Assembly (NCBI GenBank): GCA_046563655.1
Contig: CM102289.1
Coordinates: 6,634,001 to 6,698,000, forward strand
Length of the DNA stretch: 64,000 nucleotides
Direction of reading: 5' to 3'
Source of the DNA: Yuukianura sp. NJ FZ-2021
Taxonomy: Eukaryota
Of the stretch, positions 10,769 to 64,000 are shown in pieces; the first letter of the stretch is position 1, and each line of letters opens with the position of its first letter. Both the position numbers and the translations under genes were made by a program. A model generated the notes under the pieces. It was not told the origin of the DNA. It ran no database searches and saw only the letters and a list, made by a program, of their open reading frames with translations.

Positions 10769-13700
10769 TTACGGATCTGGAGATAAAAGTGGACAGATTT
10801 TGACGATTGGTCGTTTGAATGTATGTAGTTTTGGCTTCTTGGTCTTCTCATCGAATGTAGTGTACTTCACTTCAACAGTGCGGACAAGATCATCGTTTCC
10901 TGGGAATACTGCAGTGACTCTGGCCATCTTCCATTTGAGTGGTGGATGATTGTCATCTTTCAGCAGCACTAATTCTCCGATTTTGACATTTTCAGTAGGT
11001 GAATTCCACTTCCTCCGTTCTTGAAGAGTATGAACGTACTCAGTACTCCATTTCTTCCAAAAGTGTTCCAAGATGAACTGGACATGCTGCCACCGAGACA
11101 AACGATTCTCCTTGAGGTGGAGTAGACTTGGTTCCGGTATGGCAGTGAGAGGACGACCGATTAGGAAATGACCAGGAGTGAGTACTTGAAAATCATCCGG
11201 ATCATCTGACATGGCATAGAGTGGTCTGGAGTTGAGAACTGATTCGATCATGGCTAGGATGGTGTAGAACTCTTCCAGTGTCAGACATTGAGTTCCCACG
11301 GTACGTTTAAGATGAAACTTGGTAGATTTGACACAAGCTTCCCAGAGTCCACCCATGTGTGGAGCGTTTGGTGGGTTCAGCCTCCACTCTATCCCTTGGT
11401 TGCCTAAAAAATCGCTAATTTCATCATTAGACTTTTCCAATAGACTAACCCATTCCGACATTTCGTTTTTGGCTCCGACGAAGTTACTTCCACAGTCGGA
11501 GTAGATTGCAGTCGGTAATCCTCGTCGTGCTACGAACCGCTTCAAAGTGCCAATGAAAGTCTCAGTGTCGAGGCCCGTTACCGGTTCAATGTGAACCGCT
11601 TTGGTACTAAAACAAATGAAAACACAAAAGTACACATCAAATTGTTTTTTACCTCTACCCTTGGTTTCTGATGCTTTCATTGGTCCTCCAAAGTCAAGTC
11701 CAGTGTGACTAAATGGTGGTGATGGGGTTACTCGTGGTTTTGGTAGATTTCCCATCAGCTGACTGTAAGTTTTGGCACGGAGCCTTTTGCACTTTATGCA
11801 TTGATGGAGCTGCTGACGAACAGTGACACGGGCTCGAATGATCCAAAATTGCTGTCGTAGGCTACTCCACAGTAGTTGATAACTGGCGTGATGCAGTTTG
11901 ATGTGGTAATTCCAAATGATCAGTTTGGTCAAATGGTGATTTCCAAACAGAATCATCTGGTGCTTCTTCTCCTCTGGTTCTTGTGAGTTTTTGAGTCTTC
12001 CACCGACTCTTAGGATACCGTCCTTGTCCAAAAATGGGCTGAGATAGGATAATTGACTGCGATTGGATAATTCTCTTCCGACTTTCAGTTTCTTGATCTC
12101 CTTGTCGTAACACTCTCGTTGAGCCTCCCGGATGGAGATTATGAATCCATGGTGGATTTCAGTAGCTGAAAGTGGTCCAGTTAAACGATTTCCGGTTTTT
12201 GAATTCCTACAATTGCTAATAAATCGTAAGACATACGCCATGGCTCTTTTAAGCCGAATGACATTAGAAAACCTTTCAAACATGGATGAATTGATTAAAC
12301 CCAAATTGACCATTACTTTTTCACCTTTTAATTCCAAGTCAGGCTCACTTACTTCCCCCGACTCAAAATTAGGTAATTTTACAGACTCACATAGAAATGA
12401 CGGTCCTTTGAACCAGAGATTTGAGTTGATTAGTTCCTCTGCTGGAATTCCACGTGTCCCAAGATCAGCAGGGTTGATTTTACCAGGAATGAATCTCCAT
12501 GACTCAGCAGGAAGTACATCCTGAATTTCTGAAATTCTGTTGGCGACGAATGTTTTGAACTTACGAGACCGGTTTCGTAGCCAATGTAGAACAATTTCAC
12601 TGTCGCTCCAGCAAGTGATGGGACATTGTATTTTCAGAGCTTCAGTGACTTGAGTCATCAATCGTGTCAGGAGAAGGGCTCCACAGAGTTCCAACCGAGG
12701 AATTGAGATTTGTTTGATTGGAGCTACCTTCGTCTTGGCAGCGATGATGTTTGTGTAGATTTCGTTTCCACGAATCGAGCGGGCGTAGACAACTGCACAG
12801 TAAGCAGATTCGGATCCATCCGAGAATCCGTGGAGCTCCACGAACTCAGCAGTGCCTAAAAACAGGAACCTGGGGATTCTAACATTCTCAATTAGTTTTA
12901 CCCCTTGTTCAAAGTCGATCCATGGTTGAAGTAAGGCTCGAGGTATCTCTTGGTCCCACGTTAGGATGTGACTCTTTCCATCGGTTTCAACTGGTGTCCA
13001 AAGTTTCTGGAAGTAGAGTTTAATTGACACAGTGAACGGAGATAACATACCGAGTGGGTCGAAGACACGGCTCATGGACGAAAGCACAGAGCGTTTAGTA
13101 GCTTTTTCTTCGGCTACTGGTGTGTATCCAGAAAAATGAAAGACGTCATCGGTTGAATTCCAACAAACACCTAAAGCTCGGACATGATTAGAATCGGATT
13201 TTACATTAGGATTTTTACCCCGTAGATTTTCTGGAATGAAGTTGAGTAATTCTGAGTCGTTTGAGTCCCACTGCCGGATTTCAATACTGGATGATTCCAG
13301 TAACTTGGAGAGCTCATTGTAGATTTGAACTCCCTCGGCCGTAGACTTTGCATTTCCAAGGAGATCATCAACGTAGAATCTTTCCCTAAGGACCTCCGCC
13401 CCCTTTGGAAATGCCTGAGAATTGGAATTAGCAATTTCATTCAAACACCTTACCGCAAGGAATGGCGCTGAACTAGTGCCGTAAGTGACCGTTTTGAGAC
13501 GGTACTCTTTGACTGGTTCTGACTCTGACGTTCTCCAGAAAATCCTTTGATAGTCCTGATGAGATTTTGAAATTCCAAACTGACGGTACATCTTTGTAAT
13601 GTCCGCCTTAAGCGCAATCGGGTCTGACCTAAAATTGATTAAGTGCGCAAAAATGTCTTTTTGCACCGTTGGACCTACCAATTGACATTCGTTGAACGTA

Positions 13701-16177
13701 ATTCCGGTTGTTGTCTTTGCTGAGCCATCGAAGACAACACGAAGTTTGGTAGTACTGGAAGTCTCCTTCAGTACAAAGTGATGAGGAAGATAATTAGTTT
13801 TCCCAATTTTCTCACCACACTCGGAGTCAGGAATTGGTTCCATGTGACCCAGTTCTTCGTATTGCTCCATGAAGCGATGGTACTCGGGTTTCAGATCCGG
13901 AAATTGCTTTAGTCGCTTCTCGAGATTATAGAATCTCCGTAATGCCATGGTTCTAGACCCACCTAAAATTTCAATCTTGGGATTAAATGGAAAACTTACT
14001 TGGAGTCTACCATCTTCTCCTTTAGTGTGAGTCTGAACAAAATGTGTTTCAGCATCATCTTCGTCTTTGGTGAGGTGAGGACGATTTGGTACATCCTCAA
14101 TTTCCCAAAACTTTGGAATTGGATCCTCGGTTACAATTTGGATGTGATGAGATGAGACAGACCTAGAAGGACAGTTAATTGGACCAGATACAACCCACCC
14201 GAATTTTGTTTCCTCAGCAATTGGTTGAGTAGGCGGTCCTTCCGATCTCTTCCCCGTTTTAAGGTAAGCGACAAACTCAGCACCCATCAGAATGTCAATG
14301 TCTCCTGGCTCCAGAAAATGGGGGTCAGCTAATCGCAGATTTGAGATGTGACTCCATTCCATTTTCTCACATTTGAATGAAGGAATTGTACCTGTAATCT
14401 TGTTAAGCACCAAAGCATTGACATTTACATGAAAATTAGTTACCCGAGAATTGACAATGAAATTTACCTCACCAAGTGCTTTACCGACACTTGCACCTGA
14501 CACTCCAGTAATTGAAACATTTGACTTAGTTTTGATTAAACCAAGTCGTTTGACACAATCATTTGTGATCATACTTGATTCAGAGCCCTGGTCAAGCAGA
14601 ACACGACATTGAACCAACTCACCATCAGAGTCCATGACGTCAACCACTGCCGTAGAGAGTAGGACTCTAGCAGACGATGATTGAAGTGAATTGGTTGTTG
14701 ACCCTTGAGATGAAGTTGACGGAGCAGTAGATTTGTTGTCATCTGATTTTTCAAAATGAAGCGTGGTGTGATGACGGCCTTTGCATTTTAGGCACCGGAA
14801 CTTTCCTTTGCAGTCCTTGCCCCAATGACCTGATTTTAAGCAGTTTATGCATAATGACTTACTTCCCACGAATTTTGAACGTTCCTCCGTTGACAATTTC
14901 AAATAATCCCCACATTTGTAGAGACCATGATCTGTGGACTGGCACATTGGGCATTTTCGCAGAGGTTGAGTTGGTCTGGAAGATTCAGTAGGCAATGATG
15001 ACACCGATTGATTTGATTCCGATACGGTAGGCTTGGATGCCACATTAGCCTTCTTCTCTGCTGGTTTTCCACCCTCTGAATTTGATTTGGTTGTTGTGGT
15101 GGTAGACGCAAGCAGACCTCTAACGTAATCTTCCAAAAATTCCATGACTTCTGCCAATTTTGGTACATTGGTCCCTTTGAGAGACTTTGCCCAGTCCCTT
15201 TTGCATTCTGGAGGGAGACGTTCCACTAGATGAAAAACTAAAATCGAATCCCAAGAATTCACAGGCTCCTTTAGATTTGATAAGGATCTGCAACACTCAT
15301 TGAAATTGTCAATTAGTTTCCTGAGATTCTGGGAATTCTCATTGGTGATTGGTTTTGTGCTCAGCAGTTGTTTGAGAATTGAGAACACAATTTCCCGGTT
15401 GTTCTCATATCTGGATTTCACCAAATTCCATGCTTCTTCAAAATTGTTGTTTGTACTGCTGAAGTTGCGAATGATTAGTTCAGCCTCGCCCTTGAGAGTA
15501 GGTTTGAGGTAGCCGAACTTCTCACATCCCGAGAGTTGATTGTTTTCAACGATGTAAGTGGTTATGAGATCACGGTAGGCTGGCCACTTCTCATACCTTC
15601 CATCAAATGTGGGTAGTTCAAGTTTTGGTAGCTTGACCCTTGACCCAGCAGTGGCAGAGGCGGCAGCTTGTGACTCAATTGAATACAAGACATCATTGAT
15701 TTGGTCAATCATTTCGTTGCTCACGTTAGCAGCAGTAGCTTGAGCCATGACTTGAGCATCGTTCTGACAGCAGGCGAAGAGAGACGAACTCAACTCGGAG
15801 AGAGACGACTCCAGTTTGGTTAGTTTTCTTCTGTCGGAAGCGATGACTGATTTTGTGGCCTTACTCGGGTCATCTGCATATTCAGTGACCTTGTTGAAGA
15901 GGAATTGAATGTTGATATCGAGTCCCTTGTGCATCATGCGTAGTCTGGTCATTTCAGGATCTATCGTTGGAATAGCGATTGATTTGGAGGATGATGCAGA
16001 CTCGGTAGGTTTCGACTTAGTAGCGACTGGTACGGGGATTCGTGGAGCAGTAGGTGGATTGACTTCAGTTGACACTGGTGGTGTCACCGGATCCTCCTCG
16101 GTTTGAGATCTAAGTTTTGATTTAGACCGAGTCTCCATTCCTTCTGTATTGTTGTCTGACATACTGAAAATACTCAC
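10769..16177 (-). CDS. BEL/Pao gag-pol polyprotein, 1802 aa
   Basis: DUF1759-like KLPKLELPTFDG, Cys/His knuckles, protease LLDQGS, RT YVDD, Pao RNase H FSDGSESAY, integrase (GLDFGGP...SDCGSNF...WE) and C-terminal DUF5641-like region, in the order PR-RT-RH-IN. Confidence 0.97.
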   Translation of the reverse strand: MSIFSMSDNNTEGMETRSKSKLRSQTEEDPVTPPVSTEVNPPTAPRIPVPVATKSKPTESASSSKSIAIPTIDPEMTRLRMMHKGLDINIQFLFNKVTEYADDPSKATKSVIASDRRKLTKLESSLSELSSSLFACCQNDAQVMAQATAANVSNEMIDQINDVLYSIESQAAASATAGSRVKLPKLELPTFDGRYEKWPAYRDLITTYIVENNQLSGCEKFGYLKPTLKGEAELIIRNFSSTNNNFEEAWNLVKSRYENNREIVFSILKQLLSTKPITNENSQNLRKLIDNFNECCRSLSNLKEPVNSWDSILVFHLVERLPPECKRDWAKSLKGTNVPKLAEVMEFLEDYVRGLLASTTTTTKSNSEGGKPAEKKANVASKPTVSESNQSVSSLPTESSRPTQPLRKCPMCQSTDHGLYKCGDYLKLSTEERSKFVGSKSLCINCLKSGHWGKDCKGKFRCLKCKGRHHTTLHFEKSDDNKSTAPSTSSQGSTTNSLQSSSARVLLSTAVVDVMDSDGELVQCRVLLDQGSESSMITNDCVKRLGLIKTKSNVSITGVSGASVGKALGEVNFIVNSRVTNFHVNVNALVLNKITGTIPSFKCEKMEWSHISNLRLADPHFLEPGDIDILMGAEFVAYLKTGKRSEGPPTQPIAEETKFGWVVSGPINCPSRSVSSHHIQIVTEDPIPKFWEIEDVPNRPHLTKDEDDAETHFVQTHTKGEDGRLQVSFPFNPKIEILGGSRTMALRRFYNLEKRLKQFPDLKPEYHRFMEQYEELGHMEPIPDSECGEKIGKTNYLPHHFVLKETSSTTKLRVVFDGSAKTTTGITFNECQLVGPTVQKDIFAHLINFRSDPIALKADITKMYRQFGISKSHQDYQRIFWRTSESEPVKEYRLKTVTYGTSSAPFLAVRCLNEIANSNSQAFPKGAEVLRERFYVDDLLGNAKSTAEGVQIYNELSKLLESSSIEIRQWDSNDSELLNFIPENLRGKNPNVKSDSNHVRALGVCWNSTDDVFHFSGYTPVAEEKATKRSVLSSMSRVFDPLGMLSPFTVSIKLYFQKLWTPVETDGKSHILTWDQEIPRALLQPWIDFEQGVKLIENVRIPRFLFLGTAEFVELHGFSDGSESAYCAVVYARSIRGNEIYTNIIAAKTKVAPIKQISIPRLELCGALLLTRLMTQVTEALKIQCPITCWSDSEIVLHWLRNRSRKFKTFVANRISEIQDVLPAESWRFIPGKINPADLGTRGIPAEELINSNLWFKGPSFLCESVKLPNFESGEVSEPDLELKGEKVMVNLGLINSSMFERFSNVIRLKRAMAYVLRFISNCRNSKTGNRLTGPLSATEIHHGFIISIREAQRECYDKEIKKLKVGRELSNRSQLSYLSPFLDKDGILRVGGRLKNSQEPEEKKHQMILFGNHHLTKLIIWNYHIKLHHASYQLLWSSLRQQFWIIRARVTVRQQLHQCIKCKRLRAKTYSQLMGNLPKPRVTPSPPFSHTGLDFGGPMKASETKGRGKKQFDVYFCVFICFSTKAVHIEPVTGLDTETFIGTLKRFVARRGLPTAIYSDCGSNFVGAKNEMSEWVSLLEKSNDEISDFLGNQGIEWRLNPPNAPHMGGLWEACVKSTKFHLKRTVGTQCLTLEEFYTILAMIESVLNSRPLYAMSDDPDDFQVLTPGHFLIGRPLTAIPEPSLLHLKENRLSRWQHVQFILEHFWKKWSTEYVHTLQERRKWNSPTENVKIGELVLLKDDNHPPLKWKMARVTAVFPGNDDLVRTVEVKYTTFDEKTKKPKLHTFKRPIVKICPLLSPDP

Positions 16178-27951: not shown

Positions 27952-30900
27952 TTACATTCTCAGTTTCTGCTCAATTAGTTTAAAAGCAAGAAATCCACCA
28001 TAACCTGGCTGTGCTTTGTGAATGAGCCCAATTCCTCTTAATGGTGACGGTTCAGAGGCAATGAGACGCTGGGAATCAAAGTAAGGAATTGTGGATTGGG
28101 CAGCATCTTTTTCCAGTGACGTTCCACGAAATGCAACATACATGTTGCTAAGAGAGTCCGGAAGTGCCGCTGATTGGCCAAAAACAGGATCATCAGGTCC
28201 ATTCGGTTCTTCGCCATATTGGTAAACGCGTCGTGAAATCGTGCTGTTGGCATTCCGAAGGTAAACTCCACTACCTTGCACGATTCCGGCCGAAGTGGTC
28301 TGATGTGTCTATTGACAAAAGTAAGACAAAATGAATTTTTGAACAAAGAATATAAAATTTTAAAATGAAGGGATTAGTAGAAACTTACTAAGAGTTCTAT
28401 TCCAATGTAGTTGTAGGTTACAGACCCTGCATAAGTCTCAGTATAAAATCTGACTGCTGTCACAACTCGATCCAGGTCATTGGCCACGATGTCGTCGAGG
28501 TTCAACGATCGCAAGTCCATGTTGAGTCGAGCTACATAGCGTTTTTCAGTTTCGTACTTTGGGTATATCCAAGTCACGGTGGACTGATTTACTTTTGAGC
28601 TGTCACCCGGAAGGAGTTCGGCTTCGGCGATAGCAATATGAATTTGATCACGGATTCGGTGAAACTTGATACCGACAACGACACGGTTTAGTTTGAAATT
28701 GGACCGAATCGAGCGCAAACTAAAGTAGCGTGTTGTCGTGCTGCCCAGAAGTCGATCCAGCGGTTCGAAACAGTAACAGAGACAAATTTCACAAAAATGC
28801 GGAGTGTCAACTAGCACGTCTTCTTCCATTCTCCAACCTCCGCGCCAAATTTCAAGCTCTTCTGAGCACGTTGTTTGGTTTCCTAAAATTTTTTGAAAAA
28901 AAATAGCAATAATCTGGTTTCTTGGTGTTAAATTTTATAAATTTTGATGCTCCTTACGTGGTCCAAAATGGTACTCCTCATCTTTGTCATGACCTTCGAT
29001 GTACTCGTACAAGCGATCAAATCTTTTAGATGGACAAGCAGAAACGAGTCCTGTTGAATTTTGGCACTGTTGGGACACGTTTTTGAAAAAGTTAATTTTT
29101 TTGAAAATATTTTTTGAAAAGTTTAGATCTATTACCAAGTAATTTCCTACTGGACAGACAGGATTGAAACTCTCACAGCGATCGTCTCTCAAGCACTCCC
29201 GTTCTCGTTCCTGCTTACAGTCCATTTCGTGTGGTTTGCATACGCTGTAAGTTGGGTCAAGTAAGTCACATGTGACTCGGCAAGTTCCGGATTTATGAAG
29301 TGCCGTTTCAGGAGAAACGAAAACTTTAATAAAATTTGTAAGTTTTTCATAAGAAAATCCATAAGTATGATTCCGTTGTGGGTTGTTTGAATCAACTGGA
29401 GGTGGATCACATTTAGTTATTCCTGGGTGTATGTTGTAAGTTGCGCCTCCGTTGATCAATTCTGCTCCAAGCGCATGATCAAACAGTTCAACTTTTTTGC
29501 GAATACGAACTTCAAGTTGAGCCATCAAGTTCGTCTGGTTTGTAAATGGAACTTGGACTTAAAATTCAAAGAATTTACAATATTTTACTTAAGCTAATTC
29601 TAGTTTTTTATTGACTGTCAGTTTTTTGAAGCACTTACACCAAATTTTGTTGTAAAGATTCATCAAGTTTTGAATAACAAAGTGCTTGACGTCTACGAGA
29701 CAATAGTAGAACAGGAGGTAAAATGGAACGTCGTTTCCGTTTGGTTCTAAGAAAATATGTTCTTGCCCAGGTCCACAAGAATTTGGGTGAAATAATTGTT
29801 GGCTCAAAATAGTTGGCTTTTTTAAATAAAAGAAACGATTTTTAAGTTTTTGATTTTCTTTCCCACAAAAACACATGCAAATTAACCTTTGTAGCCATAA
29901 GTTTTTTGAGCCCGGCAAAAACATCAATTCCATCTTCTAGAAACATCAAATTGTAAGCAGTTTCTGGAATATCGGCGTATGGAACAGTCACATCTAAAAA
30001 GGACGTCAACTTTTGTCTGAATTTGATTTTAACATTAGTGCAATACTAAATCCGATTTTTGCCTCACGTGACCCGGGCGTTTTAATTTTTGATTTCCAGA
30101 TGTAGGTCAGATAGGATTTGAACGAGTTTAAAATTTCCCGCATATTTTGACCACCATGCTGTGAAAAAAAATTGTGGTGAAACCGTATCATTGTATTTCA
30201 GATCTACTAGCTGGTTTATCTTCTACATTAGCACATGACATTACTGTTTTTTTTATACAGCAGCGACTTGATATGTAGATCAAAGCTAAGAAATACAACT
30301 AACCTAACTAACCTTTTATTAGTTTAGTTAGCTTATGTTAAACCCAACGTGCTGGATGACACTTACCAAAATGTCTTTAATGCGTTTGTTGTAAAATCTT
30401 TCCATTTGACTTGCAGCAGAACTTATTTCAATCCATCTCAGTTTGATATTTCGAAACGGATCGTTTTTTCCATCGCGACTCATCTGCTGAATTTCTTCGC
30501 TAAAAACAAAAAAAAATACGTATTTTGGTGTTTTTGATATTTTGGAAAAAGAATTTCACATACAAAGACTTGAAACCTAGAAGCGTGTCAAGGAGTTGTA
30601 CGGGTTTTCGTCTATAAAGTATGGACAAATCCAATTGTTTGATTGGAACATGCGTTTTAGCGAATCCTTGCAAAATTTTTGGCCAAATAAGCTTTTGAAT
30701 CAAAGTCAAATTGTTTTCGTCCTGTTGGGTTAACTTCAAAGAGATCAAAATGAATTCATCGAGTGTAAATTCAAAAATGACTAAAGAAAGGCGTAACAAA
30801 TTATACAAGTTTTCACCACAAGCGAAATTTCTTTACCGATTCAGTTAAATTCCATGCTGTTTGAGCTTCTTTAATAACCGCACGTACAATTTTGTAAATT

Positions 30901-34870: not shown

Positions 34871-35941
34871 ATGGGAAAACTTACGTCCGGTCAAAAGACG
34901 TTTCTCGTTACGGCAGCACTTGTCCTTGCTTTTGCAGTAGTCATCGAATCCAAATGGGTAGAGAAGGGCAAATTCCGTGAGTGCAGGCAGATATACGATG
35001 TAATAAAGTTTCTTAGTTCCATTACTTTTTTCATGAAAAAATTGTATTACTTTTTCAGATCGATATAATTCACGTTGCTTTTTTAATCCAAGACATTCCT
35101 CGAGTAGAAGAACAAGGTGTACTATGATGACTTGTCGCTGTAATACGACTTTTTTCCAACGAACTCGCGAAACGTGCACAATCTACAATAACGATGAGTG
35201 CGGTAAGCTAAACTGAATTTAGGAGAACTTACAACTTTTTCGTTCTCGTTTTTGTAAAGAATTTGAAATATCAGATAATTCGAAAACCACTACACGCGCC
35301 CCAACTACAACTCGGGCCACTACACCTCGATTAACTACAACTCAGGCAACAACTACTCAACCAACTACAACTCAAGCAACTTCGACTCAGCCAACCACAA
35401 CTCAAGCCACTACGGCTCAGCCAACCACAACTCAAGCCACTACGGCTCAGCCAACCACAACTGAGGCAACTACTACGACCCAGGCGACTACAACTCAGGC
35501 AACCACAACTGAGGCAACTACGACCCAGGCGACTACAACTCAGGCAACCACAACTGAGGCAACTACGACCCAGGCAACTACAACTCAGGGCAACTACGAC
35601 CCAGGCAACTACAACTCAGGATACTACAACTCAGGCAACTACGACCCAGGCAACTACAACTCAGGATACTACAACTCAGGCAACCACAACTGAGGCAACT
35701 ACTACAACTCAGGCAACCACAAGTGAAGCAGCCACAACTGAGGCAACTACGACCCAGGCAACCACAACTGAGGCATCTACCACCCAGGCAACTACAACTC
35801 AAGATACTACAACTCAGGCAAGTACTACGGCGGCAACGACAGGTCCAGCCAACTACGACTGAGGCAACTACGACGCAAAGTCAGGCGACTACGACTCAGC
35901 CAACGGAAACAACAGCTTGTGAGAACTGCATTTTCGAATAA
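34871..35941 (+). CDS. Secreted Cys-domain plus long Thr-rich mucin-like protein, paralog 1 (two apparent frameshifts in the repeat)
   Basis: MGKLTSGQKTFLVTAA...SKWVEK | YNSRC...CTMMTCRC...RETCTIYNNDEC | TTTQA repeats...ETTACENCIFE-stop. Confidence 0.65.
35290..35910 (+). repeat. Coding 15-bp tandem repeat (ACTACAACTCAGGCA-like; TTTQA/TTTEA)
   Basis: Many degenerate pentapeptide units directly visible. Confidence 0.9.
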
Positions 35942-51066: not shown

Positions 51067-51550
51067 TTGCATTTACATTTTTACTTTACTTCACGACTTT
51101 TTTTGTAAACTCAAATGTAAATCAAGGGCAATTTACTATGTAAAACCATCGACAGACAAGTTGTGTCTAAAATTTCAAAATTTTTGAAAAATTATAGCAA
51201 ACATGAAGAAAAAACTTTCTGCTGGAGGTTTGACAAAGTCAAATTCAATGCAGTTGAATGTTGAACTCCGTGATTCCATCACTCCCAGTGTTCATCATCA
51301 ACTCAAATTCAGTTCATTACTTTCATGAGGCTTGACCGTTGACCCCAACAAGAAGAAATTGTCTAAGCATTTGGGAAATACTAGTCCCAATATTTGTAGA
51401 AGAAAACTTTTAGTTCCTAATATCTTTGTATTCAAGCTTTGGTTCACCGAGGACGTATTTTGCAAGGTGAGTAGCTTAATTAATTTAACACTAATTTTAA
51501 CTAATTAAAAAAGGCTTGAAACCAAAATTTTCCTAGGAAAAAAATCAAAA

Positions 51551-52779
51551 ATGTCGAACAATCTACTGGCAGCAGCTTTGTCATCAATTTCCAGTACTCA
51601 TATTACTGCTGGAGGCGGCCCATCACCATACGCTTCTCATCTGAATGTTCCTCCGAAACGAGTCAACTTCGTCAAAACACCGCCGAAGTCTTCATTGCAA
51701 GTATCTGCCCCCGACGGCTTCAGAACCACGCCCAATGCAACGCTCAAAGCCCGATGTGCTGCTGCGCCCAAAACAACTCCAAAGTCAACGCTTAAGCCTC
51801 CTGGCAGCCCAGTGGCCAAAATTACTCCTAGAACCAAGTACGGGTCAAAGGTGGACCTCAGTTCGCTTCACTCGAGTCAGCTCATCAGCGGCCCAGTTCA
51901 CGTTCAAACTGGTGCCAAGAAGTCAGCAGTCGTCAAGGACGTACTGTACATTGAAACGTTGACTGGGAAGAGGATTGAACTGGTCTTTAGAGAAAATTCA
52001 ACTGCGATGATTTGTGGCATCAAGAAAATGATTTACGACAAAGAAGGAATTGCCGTTGACATTCAAATTCTTAAATTCGGCGGTCAAGTTTTGGATGACA
52101 ACAAATTTGCTGCAAGTTACAACATTCGGCGCGAAAGTACACTGCACCTCACTCTGCGTACGGTAGATGGCACTTTCATTTTAGCACTTACGCCAGATCT
52201 CCGCAGTCCATCTTATGACTTTGACTTTACAACGGCCTCGGACATCATGAAATACTGTCGTGGAGATCATCCATACGTTCGACCTTGTGGCTGGAAGCGA
52301 TTTGCTCTAAACGTTTTGGATCGGTACGAAAACAACAAGTGGCTTGGCGTCGGGCGTTTGAAGGACAGCGACTCCATGGCAGGAGAATGGGCCGGTAAGA
52401 ACAACTTTTTACCGGTTTGACCGGAATATCTTTGGTAACACCGTACAGAAAGTAAGACTCTTGTTTTGTAGTTTCGTATCACGGAACCGGTCGAAACAAC
52501 TTGAGATCGATTGCCGAAGATGGATTTCTGCTGAGCAAAGGAAAGCGGTTCATGTTCGGCCATGGAATTTACACAACTCCAGAAGTTAAAGTGGCTGAAC
52601 TTTACGCATCGGAGTTTACAGTAGATGGCGTTACGTACAAGGCAGTTGTTCAAAATCGTGTAAATCCCGCCAATTTGAAAATTGTAACTAAAGCAGAAAC
52701 TGGTGGAATTGGGGAATACTGGATCACTGAAAAGGAACAAGATGTTCGTCCGTATGGAATTTGTATCAAACGAAAATAG
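51551..52779 (+). CDS. Ubiquitin-like domain plus ADP-ribosyltransferase (PARP-like, NEURL4/Gig2-related) fusion (exons 51551-52394, 52472-52779)
   Basis: Ubl LYIETLTGK...KEGIAVDIQILKFGGQVLDD...YNIRRESTLHL; ART region PCGWKRFAL, SYHGT, GIYTTP, AELYA, QNRVNP, GEYW, VRPYGICI. Confidence 0.8.
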
Positions 52780-56728: not shown

Positions 56729-59700
56729 ATGTCAGGACCACCGAGTACCGTGCCTGTCATTGGCTTCTTAGATGTAGATGGCTATGAATGCCAGTTGTAC
56801 CAGAGAGACCAACCGTGGACAAGATACAAACCATGTGTAGTGGCCACTTCTTCTGGAAGGTAAAATGCACATTTATAAGAATGTAGATTGGTAATGTTAG
56901 CTCGTGTAAATTAATTTTAATTTGTTTTCCAGGATTGTCTCAGTCACTCCAGAGGCAAAGAACCTGGGAATCAGCCGAGGCACTACCCCGAATTTAAGGG
57001 ACATTCCCCGAGACGTTTTTCCTTATTTAGAAGTGTTTCGTAAGCCCAATCTATTTGGGAAACCGGACACAAAGAAGACACGGCACGGTACTTGGGAACT
57101 ACTTGACGCTGTCAAAAAATTTTGTAAACGGGTTGCTGGGAATGATATCATCATTGAACTTGCATCATCCGATGAAATCTATTTGGAGCTGACCACGGCT
57201 GTAACGCAAGGCATTCTGAAGAGGAATTCGAATACAGAAAGACGTCGTTTTATTGAACTAGACGCTTTTACTGTCATGGAAGGCCTTACAAGCGGTCATG
57301 GTCCATTCCTGTACGACTTGAATCATAGGGTAGGTGTGAAAAGTGAAAGTAACCATGTGTAGGTCCCAACCTTTCTCTTGTGAATGAATATAACCGGCTG
57401 ATTTTAGGTAAAGGAAGTTTATAATATTTTACCGTATTTTATTTTACAGCAATCCCAAGCCTATGTACAACATGCCGCTCGTGATGAAGATCGGTTGGTA
57501 TTTGGAGCCTTGTTTATGAGAGAGCTGGCACTTGAGCTTCAACGTGCCATTGGCTTCAGTACTTCTAGTGGTGTAGCCAGCAATCGCTTCGCTGCTAAAT
57601 TAGCTTGTGGATTAAACAAGCCAGGGAAGACAACCGTCCTTAATCAACTTGGTCTTCGCCGCGTGGCTAAGAATATAAATGTATGCAGCGTTCCCGGACT
57701 CGGCGGAAAGCTTGGAAACCAGCTGATTGAGGAGCTTCATGTCAAAACCTTGGCGGATTTACGCAAGTTTTCACTAGCTCAATTGGAAAAAGCATTGCAG
57801 GACGCAGCAGAAAAGGCTTTGGAAAAAGATTCTAATTCTGACACGAGTGATAACGAATGCGATCACGAACAAGAATCAATGATTGCAGCTAACGCTTCGT
57901 TAGTATTCAGTTTGGCCCGTGGAAAGGACGGTAATCCTGTCATCGAAAAACACATGAAAAGTGTTATAAAATGCAATAAACCTGGTCGACCTGGTAATTC
58001 AAACTTTAACAATATCGTACACTGCAATTCAGACGCTTACGAATTTGCTTAATCTCTTTCAGTTGTATCAACCCTGCCCCTGTTGATCAGGACGGTCAAT
58101 AACCTCTGCGACGAATGCTCATGTATGTTAAAGGAAGAGAGGGCTCGGCACAAACGGATCATTACGTCAATCAAAGTGGAATTTTCCTTCGACGACGATC
58201 CTCAGCAGAGCGTCGTATTTGGCGTATCTAAGTACGACGATCTGGATGACAAGTTGCCATGTCAAATTCTTCAGCACATAATGGATGTCGGTGGCCTCCA
58301 TGAGAAGGGGACGAAATTTGTGGTGGAAACATTGGGAGTCGTCATGAAGGATTTCATTCCGTATATCGAGTAAGCGTTAACGTTAAGTGCTAGATACATT
58401 GTCCACAGTTTTAGTAACTTCTAAAATTCTGGTTTCGTTTGAAATAGGACTCTCCTGTCTGAGGAAGATTTACACCGGAAGTTGGCTATATACACTTTAA
58501 ATCAGGGGCGTTACCTAGAATTGCGCGTCCATGCAAACCCTACGAATCTACCGGCCCCGAAATTCAGTCACAAAAGCATTTCATGTTTTGGAACCACAGC
58601 AAACCAAGCTTACTACTGGAACAATACTCCAAATTTTCGCAAGATCATCTCCAAAGACAAATATGAATTCCTTATTGGATCTGACTTGGGAATGGACTAC
58701 CCTAAGGCTAAACTTGTTTCGGATCATCAGGGGTTCTATGAACTCAAGCATAGACAATTCCAATGTTGGCTGAATGATTTTCAGTTTATTGACAAGGTCA
58801 ACAAAGGAGAAATTGCCAAGCCGGACTTTATTTGCTTTAACGGCAGGTTGACCGATTCAATGCTTACGCCCAGGCTTCGGCAATTCGGAGATTGGGAACT
58901 TTACGCCATCAACGTGGCTGGAATCATTTTCTTGTGGGATGAAAAACAACCGAAACCCGAACTCAGCCTAGAACAATTCTTTGGAATTGGATTCGAATCG
59001 CTTCTTCGTGTTCCGAAGGCTACATCAGCTACTCCGTCTCCAGCTAACGAAGCTGAGCATGTGAGTATTCCATTTTTGTATTCTTTCTCGAATCACATTT
59101 GACCTAGTTTTTGGTGATTTTAAAAATTTTGTATTCTTTCATAGACTTATGGAATTACTTCTACTACTTTTGGAGAGCATAAACTCCTCATCGCCAGTGA
59201 AATTGATGGAATGGATGAAAATGGTAACTTAGTGGAGTTGCGTACGCGTAATGAACGTCTTGGAGCTGCTAGAGCGGCTAAGCTCTTGAAATTGTGGACG
59301 ACCAACATAATCGCCGGGGTGGGCAATTCAGTAATTGGTACGAGAAACGAATCAGGAATTTTGCTTGACATTGAAGAGAAAGCCACAGAGGACCTTGAAA
59401 ATGAACTAGGACCACTTGCTACGAATGATTGTCTTCACTTTCAAAATCGACTTCTGTCGTGGATAAAATCCCATTTGCCAGTAAGTTTAAGAAAATCCAT
59501 TTCAAAGTACTCCTGAAATAATTTGACGTTAAATTAATTTTTTAATTTTTTAGTTTGGAAATCGTGATGTTGTGATGAAGTATACTTGGGTTTGCGGAAA
59601 ATTTAAAGTCCACGGTGAACAAATTCAGAAAAATCAAGTTCCGAGTCTCGTGATCCCACGTCTCTACGCTAACTATTTGGACCACTTGGAAAAACACCTC

Positions 59701-59751
59701 GGAGTTTCTGTCGCTGATTCTGAGCAGGCAGTAATGCCATTGGCAGCATGA
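56729..59751 (+). CDS. Predicted 841-aa fusion of a divergent Y-family (Pol eta-like) DNA polymerase and a DXO/Rai1 nuclease domain (exons 56729-56859, 56933-57329, 57450-57993, 58063-58369, 58448-59060, 59145-59480, 59554-59751)
   Basis: Polymerase motifs FLDVDG, ASSDEIYL, GVASNRFAAKLACGLNKP, VPGLGGKLG. DXO motifs DFICFNGRLT, FGIGFE, LLIASEIDG, LVELRT, KLLKLW...AGV..VIGTRNESG. All six introns are GT-AG and frame-preserving. Confidence 0.8.
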
Positions 59752-60307: not shown

Positions 60308-61797
60308 TTAAATTGTGACAATAGTTTCATTTGGTTTGAGTCCAACCAACTTGACACTCTTTTCCCAAAGAATCTTAGCGTTTTCTGCGTTCCGTGCCAA
60401 TTTACTTGGTGTGCATTTCTATAAAAGAAAAGTTATAAGTAAAACTATAAAAGGCAAAATAATATAATAATAAGAATTCGGTTTAGTTATAAATAATGAA
60501 TCAAACTTGTACTTTGCAATCGGAAAAGTGAGCACCACTAACACCTTCTACTTCTTCTGAAACAGCGACATGAATCGACGTCTGTGCACCTTCGTAAGCA
60601 TTCTGAAAGTTGAAAAGAAATAATGTTGATATAAATAAGCTTACTGTGTTTTGGAAAAAACACAGATCTAGGTAATGCAAGGACTCACCTTAAAGAAAAA
60701 TGTAAGAATGGGCGTGATGATCTGCATGTACCAAACTTCAGTGGTGACTTGATTCATAAATGCAGTTCGGACGGCTCCTGGATGCAAAGAATTGGCCGTA
60801 ATTTCTTTGATTCCAGCATCTTTCAAACGACGAGTGAGCTCCACACTGAAGTAAATATTGGCCAATTTAGAAAGGCCATACACTGCGAAACCGGAGAAAG
60901 TTTTCTCGGAGTTGAGATTTTCCGAATCAAACGTCTTGGCAAATCTATGAGCATTGGAGGATACGTTGACGATTCGAGCATTTCCGGTTTTTCGCATCAA
61001 ATCTGGAAGTAGGTAACAAAAAACGATTTTAGTAAATTAGGCATTGTAATTTTGAATTTTAAATATTTTTTTTTTGCATTTACCCAGAAGTAAATTTGTC
61101 AGAAGGAATGGTGCAAAATGATTTGTTTCCATGCAAAGTTCCATTCCATCTTTTGTCATTTCTTTTTTAGTAACTGACAAACCGGCATTGTTAACCAAAA
61201 TGTCTAATCGACTCTCTTCGGCTATAATTTCCTTGCAGAATTTCCGAACAGAAGCCAACGAAGTCAAATCCAGTTGTTTTAGTACAACATTGTCATTTCC
61301 CGAATCTTGTTTGACCTCATCTGGAAAAAATTCAAGTGAGGTCAATAACGTTATTCATTGACTTAATTGATTAATTTAGCTTGGAAATATTTCTTAAACA
61401 ATTTTTTTACCCAGTGCAACTTTTCCTCTTTCCAAATTTCGACATGCTAAAATAATCCGAGCCCCGCGTTTGGCCAGGTCCCTGGCAGTTTCTAGTCCAA
61501 TTCCTGTAGATAAAAAAATTTAGTGTGTTTTTTTTAATCGATTTTACTTTCTCCTAAAAAATTCATTTTTTTACCAATGTTGCCTCCAGTTACGATGGCA
61601 GTTTTTCCATCAAGCCTCTTGTACGATGTGCAAACTCCTGCAGTTAATTTGGCATAGGTTTTAACAGCAACTGGAACCAATATAAAAATGGTGGCGAGAA
61701 AAGGCAAGTAGTATGCGAGCAATGCCACCGTCGCTGCGTAAAACACTACTTCAGCTAACCACTGATACGGTTCGCTATTGATTCCTGCTTTAACCAT
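60308..61797 (-). CDS. Retinol dehydrogenase 11-14-like short-chain dehydrogenase, copy 1
   Basis: N-terminal TM; TGGNIGIG, LDLTSLASVRKF, LVNNAG, catalytic YGLSK, SLHPGAV, GAQTSIH, LWEKS. Confidence 0.92.
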
Positions 61798-62542
61798 TTT
61801 TGCGAAGAATTTCAGCACAAAATTCGGATTTGTAAATTATAGTTCACCGCAGACGAAAATTTGTCTCGGTTTCAAAAAGTCACTGATGCATACCTATCGA
61901 CTAGGTTTTCCTTTTGTAGAACTTGACGCAATGGGAAAATGACATTGCAAAAAATTTCGCAACCTTATCAGTTATCACCTACAAAGTCACGCAACCTTGA
62001 CGGAAAAACAAAAAACAGATATTTTAATGGATTTTTTTGAAAGTTATTACAGGTAAACTATGCGAATGTTCCTGTAGTACAGAGTTTGGTACAAGTAACG
62101 TGACTAGTGAAGTGTCAAAAGCTATTTGAGCTGGACTTTTTTCGTTACCAATTGACCTTCAAAACCTAGAAAACAAAAAATAGTAACTCAAATAATGGAC
62201 TTTTACTTTTCTGGACAAAGTTCAACTAGTCCTATGATTTTGGTTTAACTGTCCAACTAATCGTAATTAAACTGTGCTTAACCTACATTGGTATTGTACT
62301 GTACACAGTTTATGTCATTTTTCTGCATTGCAGTTGCGGTTTTAGTTTTGGAAAAAAAAATGCTTGAAACGATTTGCAACATTACTCAATTGGGTTTCAC
62401 TTATTTTGTCACTTGATTAAGTATTGGCCAGTTAAATTGTGAAATTCTGTAACAATGCTTGGAGAAAGTATGTTTTGTGTAAATTTTTCCACTTCAAATA
62501 CATTTTTCCGTGAGCAATTTTGCTTTGAAGATTCAACAATTT

Positions 62543-64000
62543 TTATATTGGAACAATAGTTTCGTTTGGCTTGAGTCCAACTAACTTCACACTTTTTTCC
62601 CAAAGAACCCGAGCGTTGTCGTCATTTTCTCCCAAATTACTTGCTCGAGATTTCTAAAGTAAGAAATATTTTTCTTATTTAACTTAATTTTCAAAGTTAT
62701 AATTTTGGTAGAAAGTGATTTTTACTTGGCAATCAACAAAGTACTCTCCGCTCATTCCCTCAACTTCTTCTGATACAGCGACATGAATTGACGTTTGTGC
62801 TCCTTCAACAGTCGTCTGTTGTGTATGTTTAATCAATTAATTGAATTTATTAAAAAGCTTAACCAAATTAAAATTAAAGAGACTCACTTTAGCGAAAAGC
62901 CCGAAACTAAATGTTATGATTCGCCAGTACCAAACTTCATTGAGGGTAGCGCCAAACGCAGTTTTAACAACTCCTGGATGTAGAGAATTGACTTTAATTT
63001 CTTTAATTCCAGCATCTTTCAAGCGCCGATTGAGTTCTCTAGTGAAGTAGATATTGGCCAATTTGGATAACTTATAGGCTTGCAGCGTTGTGAACGATTT
63101 TTCGGAGTTAAGATTTTCCGGATCGAAAACCTTCACATATCTATGAGCATCAGAGGATACGTTTACAATTCGGGCATTTCCGCTTTTTTTCAACAAATCT
63201 GAAAATTGTAAAAATAAAATTCTTTCGGGCAATTATTACAAAAAAGATAACGTTTAAAAAAATACCTAAAAGCAAATGTGTGAGAAGAAATGGGGCAAAG
63301 TGATTCGTTTGCATGCACAGTTCCATTCCATCTTTCGTGGATTCTTGTTTCGTCATTGGAATGCCAGCATTGTTAATCAAAATGTCCAACCGACTCTCTT
63401 CGGCAACAATTTCTTTACAAAATTTCCGAACAGATGCCAGCGAAGCCAAATCCAGTTGTTTTAGTGCAACATTTTCATTACGAGAATCTTGTTTGACTTC
63501 CTCTGTATAAATAAAAGATCCACTCAAATTAACCGAATCATTAAAGTCGAAATTTTTTGTGGGAAATATTTTTTGCACGATTATTTTTAAAATTTAATTT
63601 TACCCAACGCAGCTTTTCCTCTTTCCAAGCTTCGGCAAGCTAGAATAACTCGAGCTCCTCGTTTAGCAAGGTCCTTGGCTGTTTCTAATCCAATTCCTAC
63701 ATAGAGAATTTTGACTTTTCCTTTCAAAATTTTTTCTTTTGGAAAAAATAAACTTTGCATAATGGAGTTTATCATAACAGTAAAATTTCCTCTTACCAAT
63801 GTTAGCTCCAGTGACGATTACAGTTTTTCCATCAAGTCTTTTGTAAGACGTACAAACTCCAACAGACAATTTAGCATAGACTTTAAAACCCAAAGGAACC
63901 AAGACAAAGATTGTGATGAGAATAGGTGAGTAATATGCCAACAAAGACACCGTTAAGGAATAAAACGCGAATTCAGTCAAATAGTAGTACGGATCGCTAT
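62543..64000 (-). CDS. Retinol dehydrogenase 11-14-like SDR, copy 2 (start lies beyond the window)
   Basis: TGANIGIG, LINNAG, YKLSK, SLHPGVV; same intron positions as copy 1. Confidence 0.92.

Follow-up and report, generated by a model that had tools for sequence, protein, structure and literature searches.

A gene of Yuukianura sp. predicted to join a Pol eta-type polymerase core to a divergent DXO/Rai1 domain, and its fused relatives in Folsomia candida

Few translesion polymerases have been studied as closely as DNA polymerase eta (Pol eta; POLH, Rad30 or XPV), whose recruitment by way of ubiquitinated PCNA has entered the textbooks. Here, we describe a gene of Yuukianura sp. NJ FZ-2021 in which a core of this type appears to run in frame into a domain of the DXO/Rai1/Dom3Z family. 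The gene lies at 56729-59751 on the plus strand of a stretch of 64,000 nucleotides (GenBank assembly GCA_046563655.1, contig CM102289.1, positions 6,634,001 to 6,698,000 of the forward strand), which we call the window and whose own numbering is used throughout. We regard it as highly probable, above all with respect to the architecture, that this one arthropod gene encodes a Pol eta-type core followed by a divergent DXO/Rai1 domain of the PD-(D/E)XK type (residues ~461-841) and that it belongs to a conserved family which includes proteins of Folsomia candida.

The predicted protein resembles Pol eta in that its thumb exon and the fold of its little finger find their best structure matches there and that it has retained the catalytic Asp, Asp and Asp-Glu. 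It differs from Pol eta in lacking a UBZ, a PIP box and a long C-terminal tail, its C-terminus being the RAI1 domain instead, and in having a Glu for Phe18 and an acidic insert of 28 residues in the thumb. With DXO, Rai1 and Dom3Z it shares a score above the RAI1 cut-off, the motif I Arg, the motif II Glu, the Glu-x-Asp of motif III and the Glu of motif IV, whereas the window has Arg for Lys in motif IV and Thr for Gln after a conserved Trp, and its domain continues from a polymerase. The closest named proteins, P0031, P0034 and P0014 of F. candida, have the same architecture of IMS plus RAI1, the same Glu at the steric gate and no UBZ; unlike the window, which reads EID and ELR, they read NVD and QVT or QVQ, and they are without the thumb insert. 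A further point of comparison is Drosophila Cutoff, a Rai1 homologue in which, according to PMC7061269, catalytic-pocket residues are not conserved and RNA-backbone contacts are retained, and for which binding of RNA 5' ends has been proposed; it evolves fast. Cutoff, a member of the Rhino-Deadlock-Cutoff complex of the Piwi-interacting RNA (piRNA) system, is similar as an arthropod Rai1-family protein without catalytic residues, a likeness drawn from its published description; it differs in being a standalone protein with no polymerase.

Gene model and the junction between the two halves

Scripted splice reconstruction of the locus gave seven exons and six introns, which add up to an open reading frame (ORF) of 2526 nucleotides or 841 codons with a single terminal stop, and thereby reproduced the structure put forward in the original prediction for this DNA. 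All six introns run from GT to AG; they measure 73, 120, 69, 78, 84 and 73 nucleotides, lie in phases 2, 0, 1, 2, 0 and 0, and have a GC content of 0.21-0.33 as against 0.43-0.49 in the exons. The polymerase part is spread over exons 1 (56729-56859, beginning with the start ATG), 2 (56933-57329), 3 (57450-57993) and 4 (58063-58369), and the RAI1/DXO-like part over exons 5 (58448-59060), 6 (59145-59480) and 7 (59554-59751, with the stop TGA at 59749-59751), all on the plus strand. No second copy of the fusion gene was found within the 64-kb window.

The two parts are connected by intron 4 (58370-58447, plus strand), a phase-2 GT-AG intron of 78 nucleotides that sits where it had been predicted and resembles its sibling introns in size and in GC (0.33). 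At the donor TATCGA is followed by gtaagc (58369/58370), and at the acceptor tgaaatag is followed by GACTCT (58447/58448). Reading through the intron leads to a TAA at 58371-58373, and on inspection its 78 nucleotides contained no ATG, no AATAAA and no ATTAAA. In the part encoded by exon 5 the first Met is residue 82 of 204, and the RAI1 match of Pfam already sets in at residue 42. Since this Met thus falls 40 residues inside the domain, the DXO part seems to have no start of its own, in agreement with the earlier remark that no Met lies nearby.

The same junction is found in other sequences. Two metagenome contigs, L001 and L002, repeat the series of last thumb codons, little-finger exon and RAI1 exons without change of order or strand, and their identities to the window model are ~56% and ~38%, respectively; these loci came from the query P0001. 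In both contigs the little-finger exon breaks off after the second base of a codon, at a GTAAG donor; past a phase-2 intron of 106 nucleotides in L001 (662-767) and of 161 nucleotides in L002 (567-727), the following exon adds the missing third base and carries on in the RAI1 frame. L001 and L002 share two further introns with the window, one of phase 1 ahead of the little finger and one of phase 0 behind exon 5. Because exon order, the site of the phase-2 intron and the frame are all kept, the junction is more than a product of chance. In a third relative, P0020, an unbroken ORF of 435 residues on a Logan contig of 1544 nucleotides, the little finger runs straight into RAI1 with no intron. 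Judged from sequence, we regard the fusion as established in the DNA and in more than one lineage, and the in-frame joining of a Pol eta-like and a DXO/Rai1 part that had been proposed is supported by the frame and phase kept in L001 and L002 and by the same architecture in F. candida proteins.

These observations bear on the possibility that two adjacent genes were misjoined, with the polymerase ending at the TAA at 58371-58373 and a DXO-like gene being expressed separately, for instance with an internal promoter or with the 58447 acceptor used for trans-splicing. Retention of intron 4 would bring an immediate stop, standalone RAI1 relatives of the subfamily exist (P0008, P0045 and P0039), and RefSeq splits one F. 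candida locus, but elsewhere, inside the polymerase. However, the composition of the 78-nucleotide spacer and the position of the first in-frame Met well within RAI1 both speak against an independent downstream gene, frame and phase are preserved in L001 and L002, P0020 crosses the junction without any intron, and even the split RefSeq model XP_021943663 still has the RAI1 domain and the little finger on a single polypeptide. We consider such a misjoining very unlikely. The trans-splicing variant was examined separately and rejected, because joining at 58448 a spliced leader that ends in AUG would set the wrong frame and bring a stop after five codons. The stop at the donor was likewise discarded as a sign of two genes, as any phase-2 GTAAG donor creates one automatically, and L001 and L002 have it too.

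The polymerase core and the RAI1/DXO-like domain

By their sequence, exons 1-4 make up a Pol eta-type Y-family core of palm, fingers, thumb and little finger (residues 1-460). Exon 3, which encodes the end of the palm and the HhH thumb, matches Pfam POLH-Rev1_HhH (PF21704) with an E-value of 4.4e-10 and 40.1 bits at a cut-off of 27; among PDB sequences its best match is human Pol eta (1e-16), followed by Pol iota (2e-9) and Pol IV/Dpo4 (~1e-4 to 1e-5). An alignment of the spliced model with fish Pol eta extends over residues 10-292 and scores 98 bits. Scanned singly, exons 1, 2, 4 and 7 gave no Pfam match, and the sole NCBIfam match of the window exons other than exon 1 was that of exon 3 to Pol IV models, far under their cut-offs. 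The AlphaFold model of exon 4, the little finger or polymerase-associated domain (PAD), reached a predicted local distance difference test (pLDDT) value of 86.7 from an alignment of 7 rows, and all 50 matches listed by Foldseek against the PDB were Pol eta, with template modelling scores relative to the query (TMq) of up to 0.76 and a best E-value of 7.8e-4. Because the model is confident and every listed match is Pol eta, exon 4 is, by its predicted structure, a Pol eta-type little finger. Comparison of three little-finger exons with fish Pol eta by hhalign was weak (E = 0.07), though the match fell at the expected place.

The catalytic carboxylates of the polymerase are present. D15 (56771-56773) and D17 (56777-56779) belong to motif I in exon 1, and D124/E125 (57171-57176) to an SSDE motif in exon 2, which encodes fingers and palm; all four align with human and fish Pol eta, and the carboxylates are kept in the three N-terminal sequences compared (window, P0031 and P0034/P0035). 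Glu20 (56786-56788), also in motif I, aligns with the steric-gate Phe18 of human Pol eta and is likewise Glu in P0031 and P0034. In human Pol eta F18 is the steric gate, and the F18A variant admits ribonucleoside triphosphates (PMC2817480). Glu at this position hints at an altered sugar selectivity. Elsewhere in the nucleotide pocket the alignment places Thr opposite Q38, Pro opposite Y52 and Lys opposite R55, in what we take to be the human numbering of these three residues, and the Arg at R61 and the Lys of LNKPG are kept. Pfam detected no UBZ on the window exons, nor on P0031 or P0034, and detected PF18439 on the fish Pol eta P0052; in the 841 residues of the model we found neither a PIP-like box nor a UBZ-like CxxC...H/C pattern. 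The thumb in exon 3 carries the insert of 28 acidic and Ser-rich residues (57804-57887, plus strand), which is not present in the two F. candida fused proteins aligned. This insert falls between two stretches that align with human Pol eta.

Downstream of the junction, exon 5 (the N-terminal half of the RAI1/DXO-like domain) and exon 6 (the catalytic half) both exceed the cut-off of 26.8 for Pfam RAI1 (PF08652), with 29.9 bits (4.5e-7) and 61.6 bits (1e-16), respectively. The identity proposed for the downstream domain, which hinged on such a match, is thereby upheld; of the Pfam families expected in the window exons, RAI1 was found on exons 5 and 6, and IMS was marginal, at 0.061 on exon 3. 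Among PDB sequences the RAI1 half matched S. pombe Rai1/Din1 (1.9e-6) and Arabidopsis DXO1. The domain begins ~5 residues past the little finger, and in the alignment the first residues encoded by exon 5 pair with the extreme N-termini of standalone relatives. The RAI1-like domain is completed on its C-terminal side by exon 7, whose translation aligns with the C-terminal ends of L001, of the F. candida proteins and of standalone relatives.

The catalytic motif set of the family (motif I Arg, GxxFE, E-h-D and E-h-K) is only partly reproduced in the window, which has four of the five named residues. Motif I (GR, R593) and motif II (GIGFE, with E643 at 58995-58997) are encoded by exon 5, and exon 6 contributes motif III as E683-I-D685 (59199-59207) and motif IV as E695-L-R697 (59235-59243); in the alignment EID stands opposite EVD, and ELR opposite ELK, of S. 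pombe Rai1/Din1. L001 has kept motif I GR and motif II GxGFE together with the window, and both read EID, ELR and, after the conserved Trp, T-T or T-S instead of A-Q. Among other fused proteins, P0031 reads NVD, QVT and A-Q, P0034 reads NVD, QVQ and S-Q, and P0020 reads NID, QVQ and A-Q; three RAI1 catalytic residues have been lost from the F. candida fused copies. The standalone P0008, P0045, P0003 and P0048 read E-h-D and E-h-K, with A-Q in P0008 and P0045 and the corresponding region absent from the P0003 and P0048 sequences. Degenerate motifs also occur in P0039/P0040 (named 'Decapping nuclease' in F. candida), P0030 and P0028, namely TDAN/VIV, TEG/VIV and EID/IDI. Because these standalone proteins have degenerated as well, loss of the nuclease site is, on the evidence of the motifs, an event that happened repeatedly within this arthropod RAI1 subfamily. 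The subfamily is distant from canonical DXO, the best match of standalone P0008 to solved DXO structures being 1.5e-7.

The motifs allow another interpretation of the fusion, in which it is real and its RAI1 domain is a working nuclease that decaps, deNADs or trims RNA 5' ends, for example removing primers or flaps 5'-to-3' while the polymerase fills in, so that the protein would be a repair enzyme with two activities. The motif I Arg, the motif II Glu, the Glu and Asp of motif III and the motif IV Glu, all found in the window as well as in L001, its closest relative, agree with this, as do the positive charge that Arg retains in place of Lys and the purifying selection acting on the domain (see below). 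On the other hand, the motif IV Lys has been replaced, and for the Gln of WxQ the window and L001 have Thr or Ser; the motifs of P0031, P0034 and P0020 indicate that the family overall needs no nuclease chemistry; and all four standalone relatives with good RAI1 scores have retained E-h-D and E-h-K. We therefore see a working nuclease as possible but doubtful. The original prediction had presumed an active decapping nuclease; since the window has Arg for Lys in motif IV and the F. candida fused copies lack three catalytic residues, a role in binding 5' ends is at least as likely.

Fused relatives, divergence and spread

A full HMMER search with exon 5 returned 30 proteins at E <= 0.001. Pfam scans of 22 of them detected RAI1 in 14; the 8 without it include the long, unrelated P0025-P0027. 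The lone protein among the 22 to combine IMS, HhH and RAI1 was P0014, the F. candida protein XP_035711584.1, annotated as 'DNA polymerase eta-like'. Its cluster adds OXA48483.1 (P0031, 921 residues) and OXA64433.1 (P0034, 779 residues), both named 'DNA polymerase eta', with E-values of 1.4e-18 and 2.3e-19 for IMS and of 4.5e-18 and 5.5e-18 for RAI1; over the F. candida homologues as a whole IMS ranges from 4e-21 to 1.4e-18. P0031 and P0034 align with the window model end to end, from the N-terminal VIGFLDVD to the C-terminus and across the junction. Compared with P0031 in alignment A4, the short exon 1 of the window is 63% identical, and the six other exon pieces reach 25-36%. At least two fused loci exist in F. 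candida, on separate scaffolds.

The AlphaFold model of P0031, made from an alignment of 26 rows, has a mean pLDDT of 63.9; palm and fingers are good, the thumb is poor, the little finger lies at 53-72 and RAI1 at 85-93. Foldseek matched this model to mouse DXO (1.1e-19, template modelling score relative to the target (TMt) 0.69-0.76) and to human Pol eta (6e-16 over 430-460 columns), and the evidence for a DXO fold thus comes from the F. candida homologue and not from the window's own spliced domain.

Searches of other collections gave few hits. None of 177 pattern matches from a metagenome scan with window exon 5 was confirmed, a word-index search of longer proteins produced no match at E <= 0.001 for exons 5 and 6 and only two fish Pol eta entries for exon 3, and an ESM Atlas search with P0014 gave no usable match. 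The sole named relatives are those of F. candida, the others being metagenome or Logan sequences, which fits the earlier description of the fusion as lineage-specific. The accompanying statement that no such fusion is known was borne out for the literature, in that a full-text search (subscription-only papers and supplements outside its scope) found no paper on a fusion of Pol eta or another Y-family polymerase with DXO/Rai1 or on the F. candida case. It did not hold for the databases: the architecture is already in public protein collections, hidden under the plain name 'DNA polymerase eta' in entries OXA48483.1 and OXA64433.1 and as XP_035711584.1.

To place the fused proteins among their relatives, we used a quick IQ-TREE phylogeny of 23 RAI1-domain rows with a midpoint root. 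Left out were short or odd fragments (P0012, P0016, P0017 and P0018), the unrelated P0025-P0027, P0029, and the duplicates P0001, P0002, P0004, P0006, P0014, P0023 and P0024. The six known fused rows share one side of a branch with a Shimodaira-Hasegawa-like approximate likelihood ratio (SH-aLRT) support of 96, and the complete standalone P0008, P0045 and P0039 fall on the other side. The label 'fused' requires one change on this tree, with ten fragments of undetermined upstream context also on the fused side. The tree is thus consistent with, though no proof of, a single origin of the fusion. Branch lengths within the family are 0.2-1.4 changes per column.

Comparison of the window with L001 gave a proportion of synonymous differences (pS) of 0.86, which is saturated, and proportions of nonsynonymous differences (pN) of 0.35 for the little-finger part and 0.27 for the RAI1 part; with L002, pS was 0.91 and pN 0.43. 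As pS exceeds 0.75, the synonymous rate (dS) is not estimable. Because pN lies far below saturated pS against two relatives, both halves are, on these sequence comparisons, under purifying selection.

This result also bears on a reading of the gene as a lineage-specific duplicate that is decaying or no longer functions, and so as an incipient fused pseudogene. The family is highly divergent, as its branch lengths show, some copies are without the RAI1 catalytic residues, the thumb of one F. candida copy is possibly disrupted, and conserved pocket residues of Pol eta have been replaced. Against decay stand the open frame of 841 codons with six good splice sites, the low pN in both halves relative to both relatives, the polymerase carboxylates kept in all three sequences, and the confident models of exon 4 and of RAI1. 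We judge this explanation very unlikely as well and return to that of a conserved family of fused proteins.

Several observations weigh against this preferred reading. For the window, the gene model is a prediction from genomic DNA. IMS is nearly absent from the window exons, with nothing on exons 1, 2 and 4 besides the marginal exon-3 score, and because of this near-null result the polymerase identity of exons 1-2 depends on alignment to relatives. The three changes in the nucleotide pocket (F18 to E, Y52 to P and R55 to K) could mean that polymerase activity is altered or lost. The second F. candida locus is one fusion of 779 residues in GenBank; in RefSeq it is a polymerase piece of 268 residues and a little-finger-plus-RAI1 protein of 448 residues. 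Part of the thumb of P0034 is missing in the alignment, and some copies are perhaps not intact polymerases; at this second locus (P0034, P0035 and P0023) either the thumb is disrupted or the gene models are incomplete. In the RAI1 half, the changes of Lys to Arg and of Gln to Thr make the nuclease activity of the window domain uncertain.

Surroundings and possible function

Upstream of the fusion gene, on the plus strand, lie a ubiquitin-family ORF (51509-52420, Pfam 9.4e-11), a short ORF at 52456-52779 whose HG...GIY...E pattern recalls, by eye only, folds of the ADP-ribosyltransferase type, and then RING-like and CCHC-like ORFs. Downstream, on the minus strand, two similar multi-exon genes stand in tandem (60668-61836 and 62837-63998); they have motifs like those of short-chain dehydrogenases (LDILVNNAG and YxxSK) and look by eye like a local duplication. 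Further away, a minus-strand frame of 1802 residues (10769-16177) with CCHC knuckles, a protease, a reverse transcriptase and an integrase-like part looks, again by eye, like an intact BEL/Pao-type polyprotein of a long terminal repeat (LTR) retrotransposon. Two adjoining minus-strand ORFs at 28374-29558 match DUF4803 (3.1e-10 and 8e-5), presumably an arthropod-specific domain, and a plus-strand ORF at 35335-35862 is of low complexity and mucin-like, made of PQLRQL and TTTQA repeats. The DUF4803 matches and the long retrotransposon frame make an arthropod origin of the DNA likely from its sequence, and suggest a springtail. Nothing links the neighbouring genes to the fusion gene.

The original prediction is partly supported: its structural claim stands, and its ideas on function, namely primer removal, R-loops, RNA-templated repair and defence against transposons or viruses, are speculation. 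The constant element of the family appears to be an active-looking polymerase joined to a RAI1 fold, since the polymerase carboxylates are kept in all three sequences and the nuclease residues decay in several lineages. With the Asp, Asp and Asp-Glu residues in place, the polymerase would in our reading be catalytically active. Recruitment via ubiquitinated PCNA may have been given up, the RAI1 domain sitting where the tail that binds PCNA and ubiquitin normally is. The RAI1 domain would recognise an RNA 5' end, either a 5'-phosphate or a non-canonical cap, and would tether the polymerase to RNA-DNA substrates such as sites of RNA-primed or RNA-templated synthesis. In the window lineage, where the metal ligands E643, D685 and E695 survive and the motif IV Lys has become Arg, some residual trimming of 5' ends is possible but doubtful, and in the F. 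candida lineages the domain would be able only to bind. As a targeting module for RNA 5' ends, RAI1 finds its simplest reading, one for which Cutoff is a precedent.

It is plausible, by the same kind of comparison, that a Pol eta-type enzyme is brought to RNA-DNA junctions, because human Pol eta has been reported to support RNA-templated break repair (PMC10011834). We put this tethering mechanism forward tentatively, and its basis in analogy belongs with the points listed above as weighing against our interpretation. Considerably less probable is a bolder version, in which a springtail-lineage family without PCNA/ubiquitin recruitment and without the aromatic gate would be aimed by DXO/Rai1 at RNA 5' ends, there to reverse-transcribe or extend RNA or to insert ribonucleotides. 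Such enzymes might serve RNA-templated repair or a Cutoff-like defence against transposons or viruses, and repeated duplication together with decay of the nuclease site would then be the trace of an arms race.

Should the function prove ordinary, for instance that of a lineage-specific repair paralogue, the value of the finding would lie chiefly in a corrected annotation and a documented architecture. RNA-templated repair and a reverse-transcriptase activity of Pol eta are themselves under debate (PMC10011834). The family offers a natural study series, with RAI1 sites that range from almost intact to fully degenerate and a Glu at the steric gate in all. A conserved and selected family that has traded its recruitment tail for a domain recognising RNA 5' ends suggests that there may be another way to aim a low-fidelity polymerase.

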